The notes beneath the pieces are model-generated. The model saw only the letters and a list, made by a program, of their open reading frames with translations, ran no database searches and was not told where the DNA came from. A stretch of DNA of 64,000 nucleotides from IMG/VR virus record IMGVR_UViG_3300001347_000003; one strand, given 5' to 3'. The translations under genes were made by a program, and so were the position numbers. Source of the DNA: a virus. Below, piece by piece: positions 4,546 to 15,852 of this stretch (positions within the stretch are counted from its first letter, which is position 1; every line of letters begins with the position of its first letter).

Positions 4546-4885
4546 AGCATCAATTTTAGCGCACGAAGAAATCAAGCCCAAGAAACTATCTATTGAACAA
4601 CAGATATATTCTTACCTGGAAAACAATGGCGCAACTAGTCTACAGATGATTGAGTTTCATTTGGGACTAAAGAATCAAACAGCGTCAGCAAGACTAAGCG
4701 AGATGCACGACAAAGGCATAGTATGTTTTGATGCCTACGGTTCATATCGGGTGACGCATGATGAAACAGAAAAGAGGGAGGTAGAGTGGCTTCGAATGCG
4801 TGACAAATACGAAAAGTGGAAAAAGCAAGGTGTAAAGAATGGGTGGTTAATTAGTGACTTTGATTCCCGAACCAACAAACAATAG
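4538..4885 (+). CDS. Winged-HTH DNA-binding protein
   Basis: QIYSYLENNG...LGLKNQTASARLSEMHDKG; ATG at 4538 chosen over the track start at 4511. Confidence 0.65.
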   Translation: MSKASILAHEEIKPKKLSIEQQIYSYLENNGATSLQMIEFHLGLKNQTASARLSEMHDKGIVCFDAYGSYRVTHDETEKREVEWLRMRDKYEKWKKQGVKNGWLISDFDSRTNKQ

Positions 4886-4886
4886 A

Positions 4887-5744
4887 ATGAAAACTGTGAC
4901 AAGCGTAAGCGGCGGGCAATCATCAGCATATATAGCGGCAAACTACCCAAGCGATTACTTGGTATTTGCTTTGGTATGCATAGAAGACCGTAAATGCACT
5001 CCAAAGGATGCAAAACTAGTTCAAGCGGTAAGCGATCGAATTGGAAAGGAGTTTATAGCCACGGCAGAAGACGATACTATCCTGCACACAATGTTTGACC
5101 TTGAGCAATATCTAGGCGAGTCCATTGATTGGGTCACAGGAGCTACGTTTGACGAAATCACAAGTGGAAAACACGGGAAAGTCTTACCGAGTCCTTTACG
5201 CAGATACTGTACCGCACTTATGAAGCTGAAACCAATGTTCGAATGGTGGAGAGAAAAAATAAACGAGCCAGTTAAAATGCAGATAGGATTTCGAGCAGGA
5301 GAAGAACGAAGGGCGGCATCTCATTTTAGTAAATGCAATGCAGACGGTCTTTTAGAACAAAAGCATATTGTTGGACAGCACACAAACGGAAACAATAAAT
5401 GGGCGGAAACAGCGTGGCAAAAGCCAGTTTTTCCAATGATACAGGACGGGATTTACCGCGACAAGATAGTTGAGTTTTGGAAAGACAAACCCGTTCGATT
5501 TGCAGAAAAAAATAACTGCGTAGGATGCTTTCACAGAAACCCTATTTTGCTTCGCACTATGTTTGACAAGCACCCAAATAAAATGGAATGGTTTGCAAGT
5601 CAGGAGCGAAACCGTACTTATCCGAACGATATATTTCTAGTAGGGAAAGAGACAACTTACGATCAGATAAAAAAACACAAACTACAGCACGCATTATCTT
5701 TCAAGGATTTCAGCGAATGCGATTCAGGACATTGCGGATTATGA
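4887..5744 (+). CDS. PAPS reductase/PP-loop family protein
   Basis: SVSGGQSS PP-loop, RRYCT, IGFRAGE, NCVGCFH and terminal ECDSGHCGL. Confidence 0.75.
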   Translation: MKTVTSVSGGQSSAYIAANYPSDYLVFALVCIEDRKCTPKDAKLVQAVSDRIGKEFIATAEDDTILHTMFDLEQYLGESIDWVTGATFDEITSGKHGKVLPSPLRRYCTALMKLKPMFEWWREKINEPVKMQIGFRAGEERRAASHFSKCNADGLLEQKHIVGQHTNGNNKWAETAWQKPVFPMIQDGIYRDKIVEFWKDKPVRFAEKNNCVGCFHRNPILLRTMFDKHPNKMEWFASQERNRTYPNDIFLVGKETTYDQIKKHKLQHALSFKDFSECDSGHCGL

Positions 5745-6520
5745 CACATGGATCACTCTTTTCAGGAATTGGAGGCTTTGACCTAGCAGCTGAATGGGCA
5801 GGGTTTACTAATGTCTTTAATTGCGAGTGGGAAGAATTCCCCCAAAAAATCCTCAAATACCATTTTCCCAATGCAGAACAATACGCAGACATACACGACT
5901 TCGACGCAACTAAGTATAATGGACGAATTGACGTTCTCAGCGGAGGTTTCCCATGTCAAGACGCAAGCATCGCTAAACAACACGGAAAAGGCCAAAAAGG
6001 ACTTGAAGGCGACAGAACAGGGTTATGGACAGAAATGGTTCGCGCCATCAAAGAAATACGACCCAAATACGTCGCCGCCGAAAACGTATCGAATATTCTC
6101 AGAACCAACAATGGACGAGATTGGAGAACAATCCTCGGTGAATTGGATGGAATGGGGTACAATGCAGAATGGAGAGTTACAAGAGCGAGCGAAATCGGTG
6201 CCTGCCACCACCGTTCCCGGTGCTACTTGGTTGCTTACCCCAACAGCATCCGACTCAATGAGGGAGAATCTTTCTTCTCCAATGTACTTCAAGAGATACC
6301 GCAGAAGCGCAGGCTCTTTGCCGGAACATCTGCATCGGTTGGGGTTTCGTGGGAAACTGAACCCGTTGTTTCCGGGTTGGATGATGGGCTTCCCCAAGAA
6401 CTGGACGGCATTACCTTTCCAAAGTGGAGAAGAGAATCAATCAAAGCATACGGAAATGCCATAGTGCCACAAGTAGCACATCGTATATTTGAATCTATCA
6501 AAGAGTACGAACACCTGTAA
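5741..6520 (+). CDS. DNA (cytosine-5)-methyltransferase, alpha polypeptide
   Basis: Motif I SLFSGIGG, motif IV GGFPCQ, motif VI ENV, motif VIII HHRSRCY, motif X AYGNAIV; ATGA coupling at 5741-5744. Confidence 0.92.
   Translation: MTHGSLFSGIGGFDLAAEWAGFTNVFNCEWEEFPQKILKYHFPNAEQYADIHDFDATKYNGRIDVLSGGFPCQDASIAKQHGKGQKGLEGDRTGLWTEMVRAIKEIRPKYVAAENVSNILRTNNGRDWRTILGELDGMGYNAEWRVTRASEIGACHHRSRCYLVAYPNSIRLNEGESFFSNVLQEIPQKRRLFAGTSASVGVSWETEPVVSGLDDGLPQELDGITFPKWRRESIKAYGNAIVPQVAHRIFESIKEYEHL
5811..6464 (+). CDS. Putative methyltransferase beta polypeptide, nested in the +1 frame (carries motif IX)
   Basis: 217 stop-free codons inside the MTase gene; WLLTPTASD and GKLNPLFPGWMMGFPKNWT; alternative starts at 5871 and 5919. 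Confidence 0.72.
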   Translation: MSLIASGKNSPKKSSNTIFPMQNNTQTYTTSTQLSIMDELTFSAEVSHVKTQASLNNTEKAKKDLKATEQGYGQKWFAPSKKYDPNTSPPKTYRIFSEPTMDEIGEQSSVNWMEWGTMQNGELQERAKSVPATTVPGATWLLTPTASDSMRENLSSPMYFKRYRRSAGSLPEHLHRLGFRGKLNPLFPGWMMGFPKNWTALPFQSGEENQSKHTEMP

Positions 6521-9806: not shown

Positions 9807-11158
9807 TGGCATATAACGTAAATCAGACAAGCACAGGGTTGCGCGGTTCGTATGATGATTTAATCTACGTGGTAGAGGATGACACAAATACAGGAGAGCC
9901 TAAATACAGATATGCTTGCTCTGTAAATGTAGGAGGAGTACCACAAGCTATTCTTCGTCAGCTACCTAACAATGCAGACTGTGCAGTATTTAATCCTCGA
10001 ATTATTGCAGCGCAGTTTGTGAAGCCTGATGAAGACAAATGGTTTTTAGGTCAGTCATTAGGTAATTTACTTAGTACAAACACAAATGCCTTTAAGACTG
10101 TAACAATGCGGTTTGGTTATCAGTACGCAGCTAGTGCTTCACTTGAGCCTGTGCTTACATTGTTACCTGCAACAGATCAAACTGTGGAATTGGTGTCAGG
10201 CAATTTTACCTTACCTACGTCAACGGTAATTGAAACGACAGACAGCGCACAGTACATACCCGACGATTCTAATGCTTTGTTTCTTTCTGATGCGCCATTG
10301 GTAGCAGGCGTATATACAAACTACGTAGTTTACGACACAGGCAAAACGAATTGGGCAGCTTTAGCCTTTATCAATACTTCCGCATCTACTGCAACCTATG
10401 TTAGAATTCGATACTTTAAGAACGCAACTCAATTAAGTACAACTGAAATAGAAAATAGCGTTGCCAATGGAGGTGTGCCACCAAGTACCGTAAGCGCAGA
10501 TACAGAACGCCTACTGTACTTAGGTGTAGGTACAGCGAATTTAAATGGCTATTCAGGTCAATCATCACCAGCTAATCCCGCCAATCAATATTGGACTCAT
10601 TATGAGATTACGCTATTAGACGGATTAGGCGGTAACGCAGTATCAGCTACCTATAGGTTTGAGCGTTTAGACTGCAACAAGTTCCAACAAGCAGGGGAGT
10701 TTTACACGTTGCATTGGTGGAACAGCAAAGGCGGCCTAGACAGTTTAGTGTTCAATGGCAAGTCGCAATTAAGCCAATCAATTAAGCGAACGGAGTATAG
10801 GCAAATTGGAGGCAATAGTTATGATGCAAATGGTCTAGGTGCAACGGCTTACAACAAGTACAGCTACGAAGAAGGCAAGACACAATCAAACATTATAACT
10901 ACTACAACCTTTAGTTTAAGTACGGCGTTTGGGAATCCTGAAGTTCTTAGTCCCTTGATGATGTCGCTAATGAATAGCGAGCGCGTATACATGACAGGCA
11001 GCGATGACTACGGCACGAATTCTACGGGAGCAGATAAAAACAAAGCGGTACGAGTTGCAGTTAGCGACACATCGTTTCAACGCAAGACATCAGTTAGCGA
11101 TGGTTTGACATCGTATCAAGTGCAGGTAGAAATTTCACGATTACGACCAACTAGGTAA
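9806..11158 (+). CDS. Tail structural protein (distal tail/hub-like)
   Basis: 450 aa, Thr/Ser/Asn-rich, coupled to the large tail-tip gene. Confidence 0.55.
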   Translation: MAYNVNQTSTGLRGSYDDLIYVVEDDTNTGEPKYRYACSVNVGGVPQAILRQLPNNADCAVFNPRIIAAQFVKPDEDKWFLGQSLGNLLSTNTNAFKTVTMRFGYQYAASASLEPVLTLLPATDQTVELVSGNFTLPTSTVIETTDSAQYIPDDSNALFLSDAPLVAGVYTNYVVYDTGKTNWAALAFINTSASTATYVRIRYFKNATQLSTTEIENSVANGGVPPSTVSADTERLLYLGVGTANLNGYSGQSSPANPANQYWTHYEITLLDGLGGNAVSATYRFERLDCNKFQQAGEFYTLHWWNSKGGLDSLVFNGKSQLSQSIKRTEYRQIGGNSYDANGLGATAYNKYSYEEGKTQSNIITTTTFSLSTAFGNPEVLSPLMMSLMNSERVYMTGSDDYGTNSTGADKNKAVRVAVSDTSFQRKTSVSDGLTSYQVQVEISRLRPTR

Positions 11159-14100
11159 TGGTACAATTAATAGCTACTTCTCAAGACGGAAGCGACCAGG
11201 TACAATTAGACACGCCTAAAGTACCGATTCAGTTAAACTTTCATTTCCAAGACCTAGCAAATCCCTTTGCTAACCGAACGCCCTACAGCTTCAATTTTAA
11301 GCTGCCTGCTACTCGTGAGAACCTTAAGTTCTTTTCGTACTACTACGACTACAACGTTAGCTTAGGTACGTTTAAAGCAACAAAGCGAACTAACGTAGAT
11401 GTCTACGACAACGGCATTTTGGTAATGTCAGGTATCATGCAACTGTTGAGCGCAACAGAAGACGAGTATACCGTAGTAGTTTTTGAGGAGTTAGCTAAAC
11501 TGTTTGAGACGATTAAAGACTTATCGTGGGAGCAACTGTTTATCACAGAGGCAGGAACGGTAGATACTGATTTAGATCACAGTCTAACGTGGACAAACAT
11601 AATCGACAGTTGGACTCTAACGAATGATGTTACGTCAGGTAACGTAGGAAATGGTGTCATTGTTTATCCTCTCGCTGACTACGGCCTAAACGCAACAAAC
11701 AACGCAAACAACGAAGGAACGAGTACAGGCTTTACATACGCTGGGCCAGGCACGGGTATGGATAACAACAGCAACTATACTCAATCCTTAGCAGCTAAAA
11801 ACTTTAAGCCTGCCATACGTATACAGTACCTAATTAAATACATTTTTGAATACGCAGGCTTTGTATACAACAGCACGTTTTTTGATAGCGCAGACTTTCA
11901 GAAGATTTATATGTTTCTTGCAACGGAAACAGAGCGCGTAAAATCAAGGGCTACATACGGATTTCGTACAGGGCTAACTACTGCTTATGATATACCGATT
12001 GCTCAAGCGGGCATATGGCAAAGCCTTGTGTTCGATTATGAAACGGGTAGTCCCTACTATGACCCTGACGGGCTAGTAACTAACGGAGTATTTACAGCAC
12101 CCTATGACGGTTCGTACCTTTTAGCTACACGCTTATTCGTTAGAACAATTGCAACCACTAGTTCGACTGACTTTACAGTTAGAGTGCGTATGCAAGTAAA
12201 CGGAGGGAATGCCACAAGCTATCCAATTTATTGTGACCCAACGGTAGTAAACACAGTTGATCATCAATACTGGCTAGACCTAAACGCGGGTGATGTGGTT
12301 TCTGTTTCTGCTCTTTCGAACAATTCGTTTGATACAGTACAGATTACATCAGATGTCACTAATGGGCAATCGTTTTTTAACCTCATTAATTTCTCAGGGT
12401 CAGTTGGTTTTGTCGATGTGTCTGCTAATTTTCCAAATAATGTAACCGTCGATAAGTGGTTAAAAGCCATATTCGAAAAGTTTAACTTACGCATGGTTAC
12501 TGATCGAGATTCAGTAGGCACTATATATGTTGAGCCGTGGAATGATTGGTGGGACTCAGGAGAAAAAAAGGATTGGACAAACAAAGTAGACGCAGACAGC
12601 GTAACGATTGAGCCAACGACTAAGTATCAAAAAAAATCAATCACGTTTGCAGACGGCGAAGGCGATGACTTTTTGAATCAATGGTATCAGCACCATAACC
12701 AACGAGTAAAAGGAACGTACATATTTGAGAACGAAGACAATGATTTTTCTACAGGCGAAATGGAAACGAGCGATATTTTCCAGCCTTTACGCAATAGAAA
12801 AATATATACATGGATTCAAAATACAGGTACAAGTCAAGTACCTAACGTGCTTTGTCCTGCTTTTTGGGTTTGGTCTGACGGGAGCAACGGGAGCATTTAC
12901 ATTAAAGAATCTGTAGCTTGTAAGCCTGTGCTTGCGTATTACAACGGATTGCAAAATATAGGCAACGGAGCGACATTTAACTATGGAGGTACAGCGGGTA
13001 CGACCTTTCCATATTTTGCTGAATACAATACATACGGAGTAACTACAGCTACTCAGTCTTTAAGGTGGGGCTATTCTTACCCTGACAATTTAGAAATGCC
13101 TGCGGTAGGAGGATACACAAATAAATATCTGTTTACTACGTACTGGCTACGTATGATGAACGAAATCTATAGTGATCAAAGCCGATTGATGACTGCCAAT
13201 TTTTCGCTGAACGCTACAGATATATATGATTTAAAGTTCAACGATTTCCTGTATATCGAAGGTGCATATTGGAAGCTGCTAAGTTTAAAAAACTTTACGC
13301 TTGACGGGGAGAAGCTATGCTATGCAGAACTAATCAAAGTCATTGATGCACCTGCTGCTAGAATCGATGGTAACTGCGCCTTACAAGTTGACTCATTTAA
13401 TGATGATGGAACGGTCAATTTCATCGATGCTAAAACGGGAGTGTCAGCACCTGCTACTGCTGAATGCTGCACAATAAATGGTTACGTTTGGAGCGAATCA
13501 GCGCAAGAATGTTTTATTTCACCAGGTAACGAAAATGGCGGCGGCGGCACAAATCCAATTGGAACTTACCCTGAACCTATTAGCGGATTTATAAACGCAC
13601 AAACAGGATTGGGTATAGGGACAAACGTTCCTGTGCAGGCTTTTAATTCTACTGAAATATCGGGCGGCACATATAGCTTAGAATTGTTTGCACAAACAAC
13701 GAGTGCTTCAGCAGTTGCAGCTGCAAGTAATCAAGGGCTATCGTTGTTTAATGTAGGCGATGACAGCATAACGTATATCACATACGACATTACGACAATT
13801 GAAGTAGGGGGAGGCAATGGAACGTTAGGAAACACAGCAAACTTTACGGCGCGTACAGCTATAGCTAACACAAGGTCATCAGCCGCAGTAGGTTGTACTC
13901 TACGAACAATAGGCAACCCAACAATTATAAATAATGAGAGTGACGGAGGCACACACAGCACAATCAGCATAGGCATTAATCAGCGATCGGCAGGTGCTAC
14001 AGCTACGTATTCTTTGCAATGCACAGGCCAAGCAAATGTAATTGAGCAATGGTTTATCCGTGCAACAGTACAAGTAGTTCAAATCAATGATGCTGAAGTA

Positions 14101-15852
14101 GTTTTAGAAACGCCTGCTTACTTCAATTTGTCAAGCAATACGGCAATTACTTTAAATGTCAGCCCTACACAAACCTTAGCCTTTAACGGTGGGGGGATTG
14201 CGCCGTCTCCTCCTCCTGCGTTTACGGGATTATTAAACGAGAGTTACGGAAGCGGAGCAGCTGCGGCATATTCTACGCGAAGGCTAAACGGCAACATTAC
14301 CGAGTGCATGGTGATTCGTAGGGCATCTGATTCTACTACTCAAACGATTGGGTTTGACGGTTCAGGAAACATCAACGAGGCAGATATTATTTCGTTCTGC
14401 ACAGGCACAACTTGCACGGTTTATCAATGGCTGGATCAGTCAGAAAACGGGAACACGGCAACAGCGGCGGCGCAAGCTAACGAACCGACGATATACACGG
14501 GCGGGGCGTTGGTGAAGGAGAACGGAAGGGTGGCGATAAACTTCGACGGAAGCGATGACGCTTTATTAACTGGAACTTTTTCTTCAATTGCGCAACCTGT
14601 AACGTGGTATGCGTTAGGAGCGCAAGACTCAGCGAGTACAGGCATTCAGGGTTTTTTTAGAACAGGTACAACCCCACATAGTTACAGCTGGGGAGAAGTA
14701 AATAAATGGGTAAAATTATATGCGGGTACAGGATTAGGCTCTGCATCTGGATTTGAGGTTAGCAGAGGCCCTTTATATCTAAGCACAGCACTAGCGAACG
14801 GCACTTCTTCGTCGATACATTTGAACGGGACACAAGCTGCAACAGGCAACGCGGGAACAAATCCAGTCATCGGAGTATTGGAAATAAGCAGAACGCAAAG
14901 CACTAGATATTGGCACGGAACGCAACAAGAGTTGTTATTGTTCAGCAAATCCACAGACCGCACATCCATCGAATCCAACATCAGCGACTACTTCACCCAA
15001 AACACGCCACTACTCGACACGTATACAGGAGCAGCAGCTTGCTATTCTTTGCGATTGATGCGCACCGCCCACACGGGTGCTTTGATTCGAGTTAGACGCA
15101 GTAGCGACAATACAGAACTTGACATAAATGCGAACGTATTCGGTGAACTCGATACCGTTTCGCTTTTGGACTTCGCAGGTACGGGAGATGCGTTCGTAAA
15201 GGTCTGGTATGATCAAAGCGGAAACAGCAACGACGCGACGCAGACCACGACAGCGAGTCAACCTCAAATCGTTTCAAGCGGTGCGGTAATCGTGGAAAAC
15301 GGGAAGCCTGCGGTTGAGTTTGATGGAAGCAATGATGGTTTAAATAACGCAAGCAATTTAAGAGCTTCGGCAGGCGCGTCTTCGGTTTTTATGATTAAAA
15401 ACATTCCGCAAAAAATCGGGGGAAGTTCAAGCGAACAGCAAAACCCGTTTGCTTTCTATACTGTCCAGCGGCACTTTATGGGCGGCACAACGGATTCATT
15501 TTATGGTCCTCTACAAATTAGCACCAACACAACTACTAACGAATCTATTGAATTTGCAAGTGCAAATTTAAACGGGCAAAGTTTATTCACGAGCATTTGG
15601 GACGGAACGTCTCAACTCTCGAATATCGATGACGTGAGCCTCCATATTGATGGAACACAAGAAGCGCAAACCGCAAGCACCGCGCCCTTGGGAATAACGG
15701 CAAGCGGAACGAATTCTATTGGATATAGACACGATATAAACAGCCAATACGCAGAAGGCACGATTCAAGAGTTGGTAATTTATACCTCCGACCAATCCAC
15801 CAACCGCACGAACATCGAGAGCAACATCAACACCTTCTATTCTATTTACTAA
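11158..15852 (+). CDS. Large tail-tip/host-specificity protein with two tandem C-terminal lectin-like domains
   Basis: 1564 aa; duplicated YSxR...RRxSD...W(L/Y)DQSxNxN...QP/EP...NG(R/K)xAxxFDG domain. Confidence 0.75.
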   Translation: MVQLIATSQDGSDQVQLDTPKVPIQLNFHFQDLANPFANRTPYSFNFKLPATRENLKFFSYYYDYNVSLGTFKATKRTNVDVYDNGILVMSGIMQLLSATEDEYTVVVFEELAKLFETIKDLSWEQLFITEAGTVDTDLDHSLTWTNIIDSWTLTNDVTSGNVGNGVIVYPLADYGLNATNNANNEGTSTGFTYAGPGTGMDNNSNYTQSLAAKNFKPAIRIQYLIKYIFEYAGFVYNSTFFDSADFQKIYMFLATETERVKSRATYGFRTGLTTAYDIPIAQAGIWQSLVFDYETGSPYYDPDGLVTNGVFTAPYDGSYLLATRLFVRTIATTSSTDFTVRVRMQVNGGNATSYPIYCDPTVVNTVDHQYWLDLNAGDVVSVSALSNNSFDTVQITSDVTNGQSFFNLINFSGSVGFVDVSANFPNNVTVDKWLKAIFEKFNLRMVTDRDSVGTIYVEPWNDWWDSGEKKDWTNKVDADSVTIEPTTKYQKKSITFADGEGDDFLNQWYQHHNQRVKGTYIFENEDNDFSTGEMETSDIFQPLRNRKIYTWIQNTGTSQVPNVLCPAFWVWSDGSNGSIYIKESVACKPVLAYYNGLQNIGNGATFNYGGTAGTTFPYFAEYNTYGVTTATQSLRWGYSYPDNLEMPAVGGYTNKYLFTTYWLRMMNEIYSDQSRLMTANFSLNATDIYDLKFNDFLYIEGAYWKLLSLKNFTLDGEKLCYAELIKVIDAPAARIDGNCALQVDSFNDDGTVNFIDAKTGVSAPATAECCTINGYVWSESAQECFISPGNENGGGGTNPIGTYPEPISGFINAQTGLGIGTNVPVQAFNSTEISGGTYSLELFAQTTSASAVAAASNQGLSLFNVGDDSITYITYDITTIEVGGGNGTLGNTANFTARTAIANTRSSAAVGCTLRTIGNPTIINNESDGGTHSTISIGINQRSAGATATYSLQCTGQANVIEQWFIRATVQVVQINDAEVVLETPAYFNLSSNTAITLNVSPTQTLAFNGGGIAPSPPPAFTGLLNESYGSGAAAAYSTRRLNGNITECMVIRRASDSTTQTIGFDGSGNINEADIISFCTGTTCTVYQWLDQSENGNTATAAAQANEPTIYTGGALVKENGRVAINFDGSDDALLTGTFSSIAQPVTWYALGAQDSASTGIQGFFRTGTTPHSYSWGEVNKWVKLYAGTGLGSASGFEVSRGPLYLSTALANGTSSSIHLNGTQAATGNAGTNPVIGVLEISRTQSTRYWHGTQQELLLFSKSTDRTSIESNISDYFTQNTPLLDTYTGAAACYSLRLMRTAHTGALIRVRRSSDNTELDINANVFGELDTVSLLDFAGTGDAFVKVWYDQSGNSNDATQTTTASQPQIVSSGAVIVENGKPAVEFDGSNDGLNNASNLRASAGASSVFMIKNIPQKIGGSSSEQQNPFAFYTVQRHFMGGTTDSFYGPLQISTNTTTNESIEFASANLNGQSLFTSIWDGTSQLSNIDDVSLHIDGTQEAQTASTAPLGITASGTNSIGYRHDINSQYAEGTIQELVIYTSDQSTNRTNIESNINTFYSIY

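Follow-up and report, generated by a model that had tools for sequence, protein, structure and literature searches.

Within a 64,000-nucleotide (nt) stretch of DNA from a marine phage, IMG/VR virus record IMGVR_UViG_3300001347_000003 (the window, i.e. the whole stretch that was analysed), a gene of the C5 cytosine methyltransferase family (alpha, frame 0) was examined together with a second open reading frame (ORF) on the same strand, which is offset by +1, lies wholly within the alpha gene (5741–6520) and is stop-free for 225 codons. The putative product of the nested frame is called beta. The features of the locus, with positions counted from the first letter of the window, were as follows:

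5741–6520, + strand: alpha gene, frame 0, 259 amino acids (aa), from ATG 5741 to TAA 6518–6520; large catalytic, S-adenosylmethionine (AdoMet)-binding domain.
5756–5776, + strand: location of alpha motif I, LFSGIGG.
5811–6464, + strand: longest nested +1 ORF, 217 codons plus stop (6462–6464), which includes the beta gene.
5871–6464, + strand: probable beta coding sequence, 197 aa, with its ATG 25 codons before motif IV.
5945–5959, + strand: alpha motif IV, GFPCQ, with the catalytic Cys; invariant in the alpha alignment.
6080–6088, + strand: alpha motif VI, ENV; invariant columns in the alpha alignment.
6144–6176, + strand: beta segment WMEWGTMQNGE, the first part of beta confidently placed on alpha; interface residues 89–101.
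6206–6226, + strand: location of alpha motif VIII, HHRSRCY.
6228–6254, + strand: beta WLLTPTASD, an (L)LPTPxAxD module and putative target-recognition element, marked by conservation and the predicted interface.
6281–6430, + strand: linker that joins motif VIII to motif X in alpha, residues about 181–230, with predicted disorder; here the alpha protein evolves faster than the overlapping beta frame.
6351–6407, + strand: beta motif IX, GKLNPLFPGWMMGFPKNWT, marked by conservation, alignment to M.HhaI and the predicted interface; the best-modelled part of beta.
6446–6466, + strand: alpha motif X, AYGNAIV, with a GNA core invariant in the alignment; it contains the beta stop 6462–6464.

The initial annotation of this DNA had listed motifs I, IV, VI, VIII and X in the main frame, as well as a +1 frame of 217 codons at 5811–6464 with WLLTPTASD and a motif IX-like segment at 6351–6407; motifs, frame and coordinates were all found to be exact.

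Alpha, which carries the C5-methyltransferase motifs I, IV, VI, VIII and X in one chain, was matched by PF00145 (E 1.5e-48, 166 bits at a cut-off of 22; profile positions 2–178 of 324) and by TIGR00675 (E 3.3e-41, 142 bits at a cut-off of 100.65; profile positions 3–168 of 329). Because the Pfam match goes no further than profile position 178 and the NCBIfam match no further than 168, so that frame 0 is recognised only as far as motif VIII, it was taken to be without a recognisable motif IX, as had been stated at the outset. The recognition region and motif IX that mark a C5 enzyme between motifs VIII and X of the same chain were thus not found in alpha, and motif IX was seen in the +1 frame only. 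In the PHROG library alpha matched phrog_363 along its full length (1.8e-68), and the alpha family profile matched M.HhaI (4e-45) over chain residues 9–318. AlphaFold2 (AF2), run on alpha with 75 homologues aligned, returned a confident large domain with a predicted local distance difference test score (pLDDT) of 81 and a predicted template modelling score (pTM) of 0.80, and modelled the VIII–X linker, residues 181–230, as disordered (pLDDT 37–63).

The openness of the +1 frame was compared with that obtained after synonymous-codon shuffling of alpha. An open stretch of at least 225 codons was reached in 4 of 5000 shuffles, the mean being 88 codons; the +2 frame, unlike +1, was as open as its own synonymous shuffles. 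The comparison was made over 85 loci (80 viral loci with an alpha alignment, four GenBank phage loci and the window), a set that includes marine, gut, Mycobacterium, Porphyromonas and Bacteroides phages. Every one of these 85 loci had an open +1 frame, over 130–381 codons, from before motif IV (after motif IV in four loci) to just before motif X, and the +2 frame held 4–39 stops. The conservation check proposed with the initial annotation therefore came out in its favour, as no homologue had a stop inside the +1 span (85/85). When the nested product was searched by tblastn, matches were obtained in Mycobacterium cluster-F phages (Zerg, SG4, Che9d and others; Zerg at 32% identity, E 7e-12), and these lay inside annotated methyltransferase genes at the same +1 offset, so that protein similarity in this frame spans phyla. 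The openness of the +1 frame is not chance.

The start of beta had been placed at 5811, 5871 or 5919. The second of these fitted the homologues best, and the ATGs at 5811 and 5919 were absent from the close relatives L085 and L086. A +1 ATG located 30 to 9 codons before motif IV, in a frame that stays open through motif IV, was present in 83/85 loci, compared with 25.5 expected from synonymous shuffles. In numerous loci a +1 stop stands directly upstream of this conserved ATG, which fixes the N-terminus of beta. The 20 nt upstream of the beta ATG were richer in A/T than the alpha protein demands (0.659 vs 0.615, p 5e-7). From these sequence comparisons, beta probably starts at 5871.

Since some of the +1 similarity merely shadows alpha motifs (GGFPCQDIS reads EDSPARTS, and GYDAEW reads (S)GMM.SG), the gene was split into regions for the comparison of frames. 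Mean pairwise identities in frames 0/+1/+2 were 0.45/0.23/0.22 in region I–IV, 0.50/0.30/0.26 in region IV–VIII and 0.22/0.26/0.19 in region VIII–X, and in the last of these +1 was more conserved than frame 0 in 75% of pairs. Substitutions per site between the window and L085 amounted to 0.16–0.24 in the flanks, 0.09 in IV–VIII and 0.04 in VIII–X; with L085 and L086 taken together the ranges were 0.16–0.32 in the non-overlapped flanks, 0.09–0.18 in IV–VIII and 0.04–0.17 in VIII–X. Alpha-synonymous change between the window and L085 was lower in VIII–X than in the flanks (p 8.5e-7). In four other independent close pairs it was 0.025 per codon in VIII–X vs 0.132 in the flanks (p 7e-7), a suppression of about 5-fold, and alpha nonsynonymous change in VIII–X (0.095) stood above the alpha-synonymous value of 0.025. 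The suppression of alpha-synonymous change in the overlap, another check that had been suggested, was thereby borne out.

In the relatives, variable sites coincided with the wobble position of alpha over the flanks and IV–VIII, and with that of beta over VIII–X. Among natural marine variants, 6 of the 8 differences listed for 5953–6007 were alpha-silent; for 6194–6296, 12 differences were listed, with 8 at the third codon position of beta, 7 beta-silent and 3 alpha-silent. It follows from the region-wise conservation and from the shift of the wobble position that VIII–X is read mainly for beta and IV–VIII mainly for alpha. Purifying selection acts on both frames, and both are maintained free of stops. 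The claim of about 650 nt under dual-coding constraint held in part: the constraint on two frames was strong over approximately 6135–6464 and uneven over the whole, +1 being kept open upstream with a weakly constrained sequence.

These data bear directly on the reading in which the +1 ORF is an untranslated shadow, with its openness and similarity being by-products of alpha motifs and codon usage. Such a shadow would account for the mirrored motifs given above and for region IV–VIII, in which +1 was barely more conserved than +2. It would not account for a +1 conservation that peaks where alpha is least conserved, for the roughly 5-fold loss of alpha-synonymous change in VIII–X with variation moved to the +1 wobble position, for an openness far beyond that of synonymous shuffles, for the enriched start codon (83/85 vs 25.5 expected) or for the repeated LPTPxAxD modules, which occur in the +1 reading only. 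We regard this explanation as extremely unlikely.

The content of the nested frame was analysed with an alignment of 75 betas. Beta motif IX follows the pattern LNP..GWMMGFP..WT; M172 was invariant, and G173, P175 and T179 of MGFP..WT were nearly invariant, as was T123 in TPTA. When the 75-beta profile was searched against the whole PDB, 11 M.HhaI sequences were matched at residues 266–297, i.e. at motif IX, with E 0.3; the sole other match was an unrelated hemocyanin chain (E 1.5). The structural match of the nested ORF to motif IX that had been anticipated was therefore obtained at the expected place in M.HhaI, at a weak E value. In the PHROG library beta was matched by phrog_1008 in two stretches (2.9e-13). 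Both phrog_363, matched by alpha, and phrog_1008 are labelled DNA methyltransferase; they are annotation clusters, not characterised systems, and the library carries no statement that the two share the same DNA. AF2 of beta alone gave pLDDT 56 and pTM 0.20, with disorder except for a short motif IX helix.

Alpha and beta (5871–6461) were then modelled as a complex, for which three runs gave a score of 0.86, compared with 0.00 for the best of 3 controls; the co-fold proposed with the initial annotation thus passed its controls. The score mark used was reached by 58 of 80 solved complexes and by 2 of 110 mismatched pairs, benchmark counts that apply only roughly here since our own alignments were supplied. 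On the beta side the predicted interface was formed by residues 89–132 (WGTMQNG, WLLTPTASD) and 162–185 (motif IX, WTALPFQ), and on the alpha side by motif I, residues 117–158 and residues 218–244 including motif X. As a prediction, the complex model supports binding of beta to alpha.

Beta could also be translated and conserved outside the catalytic enzyme, as a regulator or as an overprinted protein of unrelated function, with alpha active alone. Its predicted disorder when modelled alone would fit such a role, as would the fact that no Pfam or NCBIfam model recognises it, and the alpha linker has a weak DDGLP..LD segment that HMMER aligned to motif IX of M.HhaI. That DDGLP segment shares its DNA with MMGFP of beta, however, and is the less conserved of the two readings. 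Alpha is without a folded small domain, on which solved C5 enzymes depend for major-groove binding of DNA (PMC3404938); what is invariant at the core of beta is the motif IX pattern, the distance of which to motif X is canonical, and the model puts beta at the position of the small domain. A role for beta outside the enzyme is accordingly judged very improbable.

Beta ends where alpha motif X starts (stop 6462–6464 within 6446–6466). Therefore, the order along the DNA is motifs I–VIII in frame 0, the recognition part and motif IX in +1, and motif X in frame 0, colinear with M.HhaI. This order, which is exactly that of a monomeric enzyme with the beta stop inside motif X, would also be expected if a single polypeptide were made by recoding, with frame 0 used for motifs I–VIII, +1 entered for the recognition part and motif IX, and frame 0 perhaps re-entered for motif X, so that the nested ORF would resemble an exon. 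Three natural contigs (L021, L090 and L091) with a one-base frame swap give open fusions of the alpha N-terminus to the beta C-terminus, as such a product would look. Inclusion of motif X would, however, take two shifts, and no conserved slippery site was seen in a search that was not systematic. Frame 0 is open throughout VIII–X (up to about 500 codons in locus L092), and +1 is open for about 90 codons upstream of the needed shift point, with a conserved ATG; neither is needed under recoding. The chains of M.EcoHK31I function from separate plasmids (PMC2836561), and the frame-swapped contigs have the appearance of errors or of decay, L090 having a G11 run and L091 a degenerate motif X. Recoding is considered very improbable.

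The three contigs were inspected individually. As natural single-chain forms they were rejected, as the fused frame is without motif VIII and/or motif X and homopolymer errors or decay are likely. In L090 (1618–1650) a run of 11 G is located exactly where the called ORF switches from the alpha to the beta frame, and three distinct database proteins (P0105, P0108 and P0109) share this junction; the run is due to a sequencing error in the homopolymer, or else it is a tract prone to slippage by which the enzyme is turned off. L091 (1201–1884), together with protein P0017 from Bacteroides salyersiae, is a broken copy of the window subtype, in which the alpha N-terminus runs on into beta through a frameshift after motif IV, and the displaced frame holds a degenerate motif X (HAYGNSMCPQ). 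This copy probably belongs to a prophage in decay, and for it the NCBI annotation holds only a 126-aa hypothetical protein, i.e. the C-terminal part of beta. L021 (1500–2200), the IMG/VR locus with the top alpha identity (58%), has a one-base frame swap just before motif VIII that fuses alpha motifs I–VII to the recognition part and motif IX of beta and leaves motifs VIII–X in the third frame; it is an assembly error or a pseudogene.

Taken together, sequence and structure models make it likely that the locus produces a two-chain C5 cytosine methyltransferase of the M.EcoHK31I type, an interpretation that had been put forward in the initial annotation and that is supported by selection on both frames, by the profile of the nested frame and by the complex model. 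In the proposed mechanism, one stretch of DNA would encode two chains, alpha from frame 0 and beta (about 197 aa from 5871) from +1. Alpha would provide the large domain, made up of motifs I–VIII, an unstructured linker of about 55 residues and motif X. Beta would consist of a poorly constrained N-terminal leader, which overlaps alpha motifs IV–VIII, followed by the small domain with WGTMQNG, the TPTASD module and motif IX; it thus seems to carry the whole small domain, the target-recognition part as well as motif IX, and not motif IX alone. Translation of beta probably initiates internally on the shared mRNA, independently of a Shine-Dalgarno signal, and beta would then dock on alpha, completing the DNA-binding cleft. 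The arrangement may have arisen by a frame split of a monomeric ancestor. That beta is translated, that a heterodimer forms and which of the chains reads the target are points that we infer.

Several observations weigh against this two-chain enzyme. Pfam and NCBIfam gave no match to the window beta or to the 75 beta homologues, and the match of beta motif IX to M.HhaI is weak (E 0.3, as given above). Residues 1 to about 88 of beta are weakly constrained and were not confidently placed in the complex model. The pass of that model may come in part from the resemblance of alpha plus beta to solved monomeric methyltransferases, which is likeness and not binding. No Shine-Dalgarno signal was found ahead of any candidate beta start in the window; across the homologues such a signal preceded beta in 12 of 75 loci vs 6.9 expected, which is unconvincing, and the majority of these phages have none ahead of alpha either. 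Many of the 85 loci are mutually related, so that pooled p-values overstate their independence. Contigs identical to the window cover 5711–6409 in two metatranscriptome libraries and are compatible with expression, although contigs from RNA libraries cannot show transcription, strand, ends or frame.

The closest known system is the two-polypeptide C5 methyltransferase M.EcoHK31I (YGGCCR) from E. coli HK31 (Lee, Kam and Shaw 1995; account taken from PMC2836561 and PMC3404938). In that enzyme alpha has motifs I–VIII, motif X and the predicted recognition domain, motif IX is on beta, which is encoded entirely in another frame of the alpha gene, and both chains are required (PMC2836561, PMC3404938); the precedent had been cited correctly in the initial annotation. 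N-terminal deletions of its beta weaken the association, and several internal ATGs in beta are usable (PMC2836561). Compared by published architecture and not by sequence, the window resembles M.EcoHK31I in that alpha has motifs I–VIII as well as X, and beta is wholly nested in another frame and carries motif IX. It differs from M.EcoHK31I, in which the target-recognition domain (TRD) is predicted on alpha (PMC2836561, PMC3404938; this assignment is itself a prediction), as the VIII–X part of the window alpha is disordered and fast-evolving and conserved recognition-like modules are found on beta. The window gene is also phage-borne and has no restriction partner adjacent to it, unlike M.EcoHK31I.

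M.AquI is encoded by two genes that are located side by side and are not nested. This enzyme (CYCGRG) is a two-subunit C5 methyltransferase split in the variable region, the beta subunit of which has, in addition to motif IX, motif X and one half of the variable region (PMC3404938). The window shares with it a split C5 enzyme in which the small subunit has motif IX; motif X, which M.AquI has on the small subunit, stays on alpha in the window, where beta is fully nested and stops at 6464. To M.HhaI the window is similar in the alpha profile match, the alignment of beta motif IX (266–297), the order of segments and the spacing from IX to X. It differs from the monomeric enzymes M.HhaI and M.HaeIII, for which structures are solved, in having two chains from two frames, and between its recognition part and that of M.HhaI no similarity was detectable. 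A tblastn search of beta against plasmids gave only 4 matches, in cyanobacterial and Bacteroides records and none from E. coli. A full-text literature search turned up no account of the nested layout other than for M.EcoHK31I; papers on overlapping genes that mention methyltransferases were considered and set aside, as they concern the tymovirus replicase and not this layout. The nested layout is known experimentally from only one E. coli enzyme, M.EcoHK31I, and the window is a further case of a barely documented architecture.

The extent of this architecture was estimated with the beta profile, which found 44,451 cluster representatives at E ≤ 0.001, 27,869 at ≤ 1e-10 and 7,280 at ≤ 1e-30; the +1 frame is therefore very often called as a gene and yet remains nameless. 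The LPTPxAxD module, present once in the window beta, reaches about 10 copies in the longest betas, which are coherent proteins, and the nearest virus record, G001, with which 44% of the window's sampled words are shared, carries a longer beta. In L092 (781–3000) a 610-aa beta with about 10 LPTPxAxD modules is located inside an alpha frame that is open for about 710 codons; its alpha VIII–X stretch of about 500 codons resembles a meaningless spacer, and the third frame holds 53 stops. Both frames must therefore stay open in this long nested pair, alpha in order to reach motif X and beta for itself.

A broader proposal is put forward tentatively, with somewhat less than even confidence. The nested split could be how C5 methyltransferases of phages and prophages are normally built across a very large clade, in which the small domain would always come from +1 and the VIII–X part of alpha would serve only as a translated spacer, of up to about 500 codons, between the core and motif X. 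LPTPxAxD modules would be gained and lost in beta (1 here, about 10 elsewhere) as specificity evolves, which could give multispecific enzymes, and the clade would have originated by paired frame changes that split a monomeric gene.

With regard to annotation, the four GenBank phage records examined list alpha alone and leave the nested ORF out, in agreement with the expectation that standard annotation would drop beta. The opposite was observed in L086 (1494–2258), where both frames are intact and the metagenome gene caller kept beta (1501–2196) and discarded alpha; in coding score the +1 frame is therefore at least the equal of frame 0.

In the window the alpha gene is flanked upstream by a NinG-like gene and downstream by genes for a DUF5681 protein and the large terminase subunit; no restriction gene adjoins the alpha/beta locus. 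The stretch is present in marine metagenomes of at least 10 studies, with possible source samples excluded. A megablast search of GenBank phages with 8 kb of the window returned no match. An upstream 296-aa ORF (4854–5744) has a PP-loop-like SGGQSS and no Pfam match, and its stop overlaps the alpha start (ATGA 5741–5744). Its product shares 27% identity (pairwise E 9e-8) with a PF01507 PAPS_reduct protein encoded just upstream of the related methyltransferase gene in L091, so a second lineage also has a PAPS_reduct-like gene paired with the methyltransferase. In Porphyromonas phage024a the gene that precedes alpha is not related to the one in the window. Further downstream, past the terminase/portal region, a 1564-aa ORF was recorded at 11158–15852.

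Long overlapping genes on the same strand are rare in double-stranded DNA phages and bacteria and are often disputed. At this locus some 600 nt (as much as 1.8 kb in relatives) code for two parts of one enzyme, on the reading preferred above, with clear signatures of selection on both frames. Annotation pipelines retain one frame, and metagenome gene callers sometimes keep beta over alpha; as a consequence, these enzymes appear to be without a recognition domain, and expression of alpha only, or prediction of the target from it, would fail. The family offers thousands of natural cases for the study of two proteins that share one sequence, and it would provide a split-methyltransferase scaffold from nature, similar in kind to those that have already served for targeted methylation (PMC2836561).

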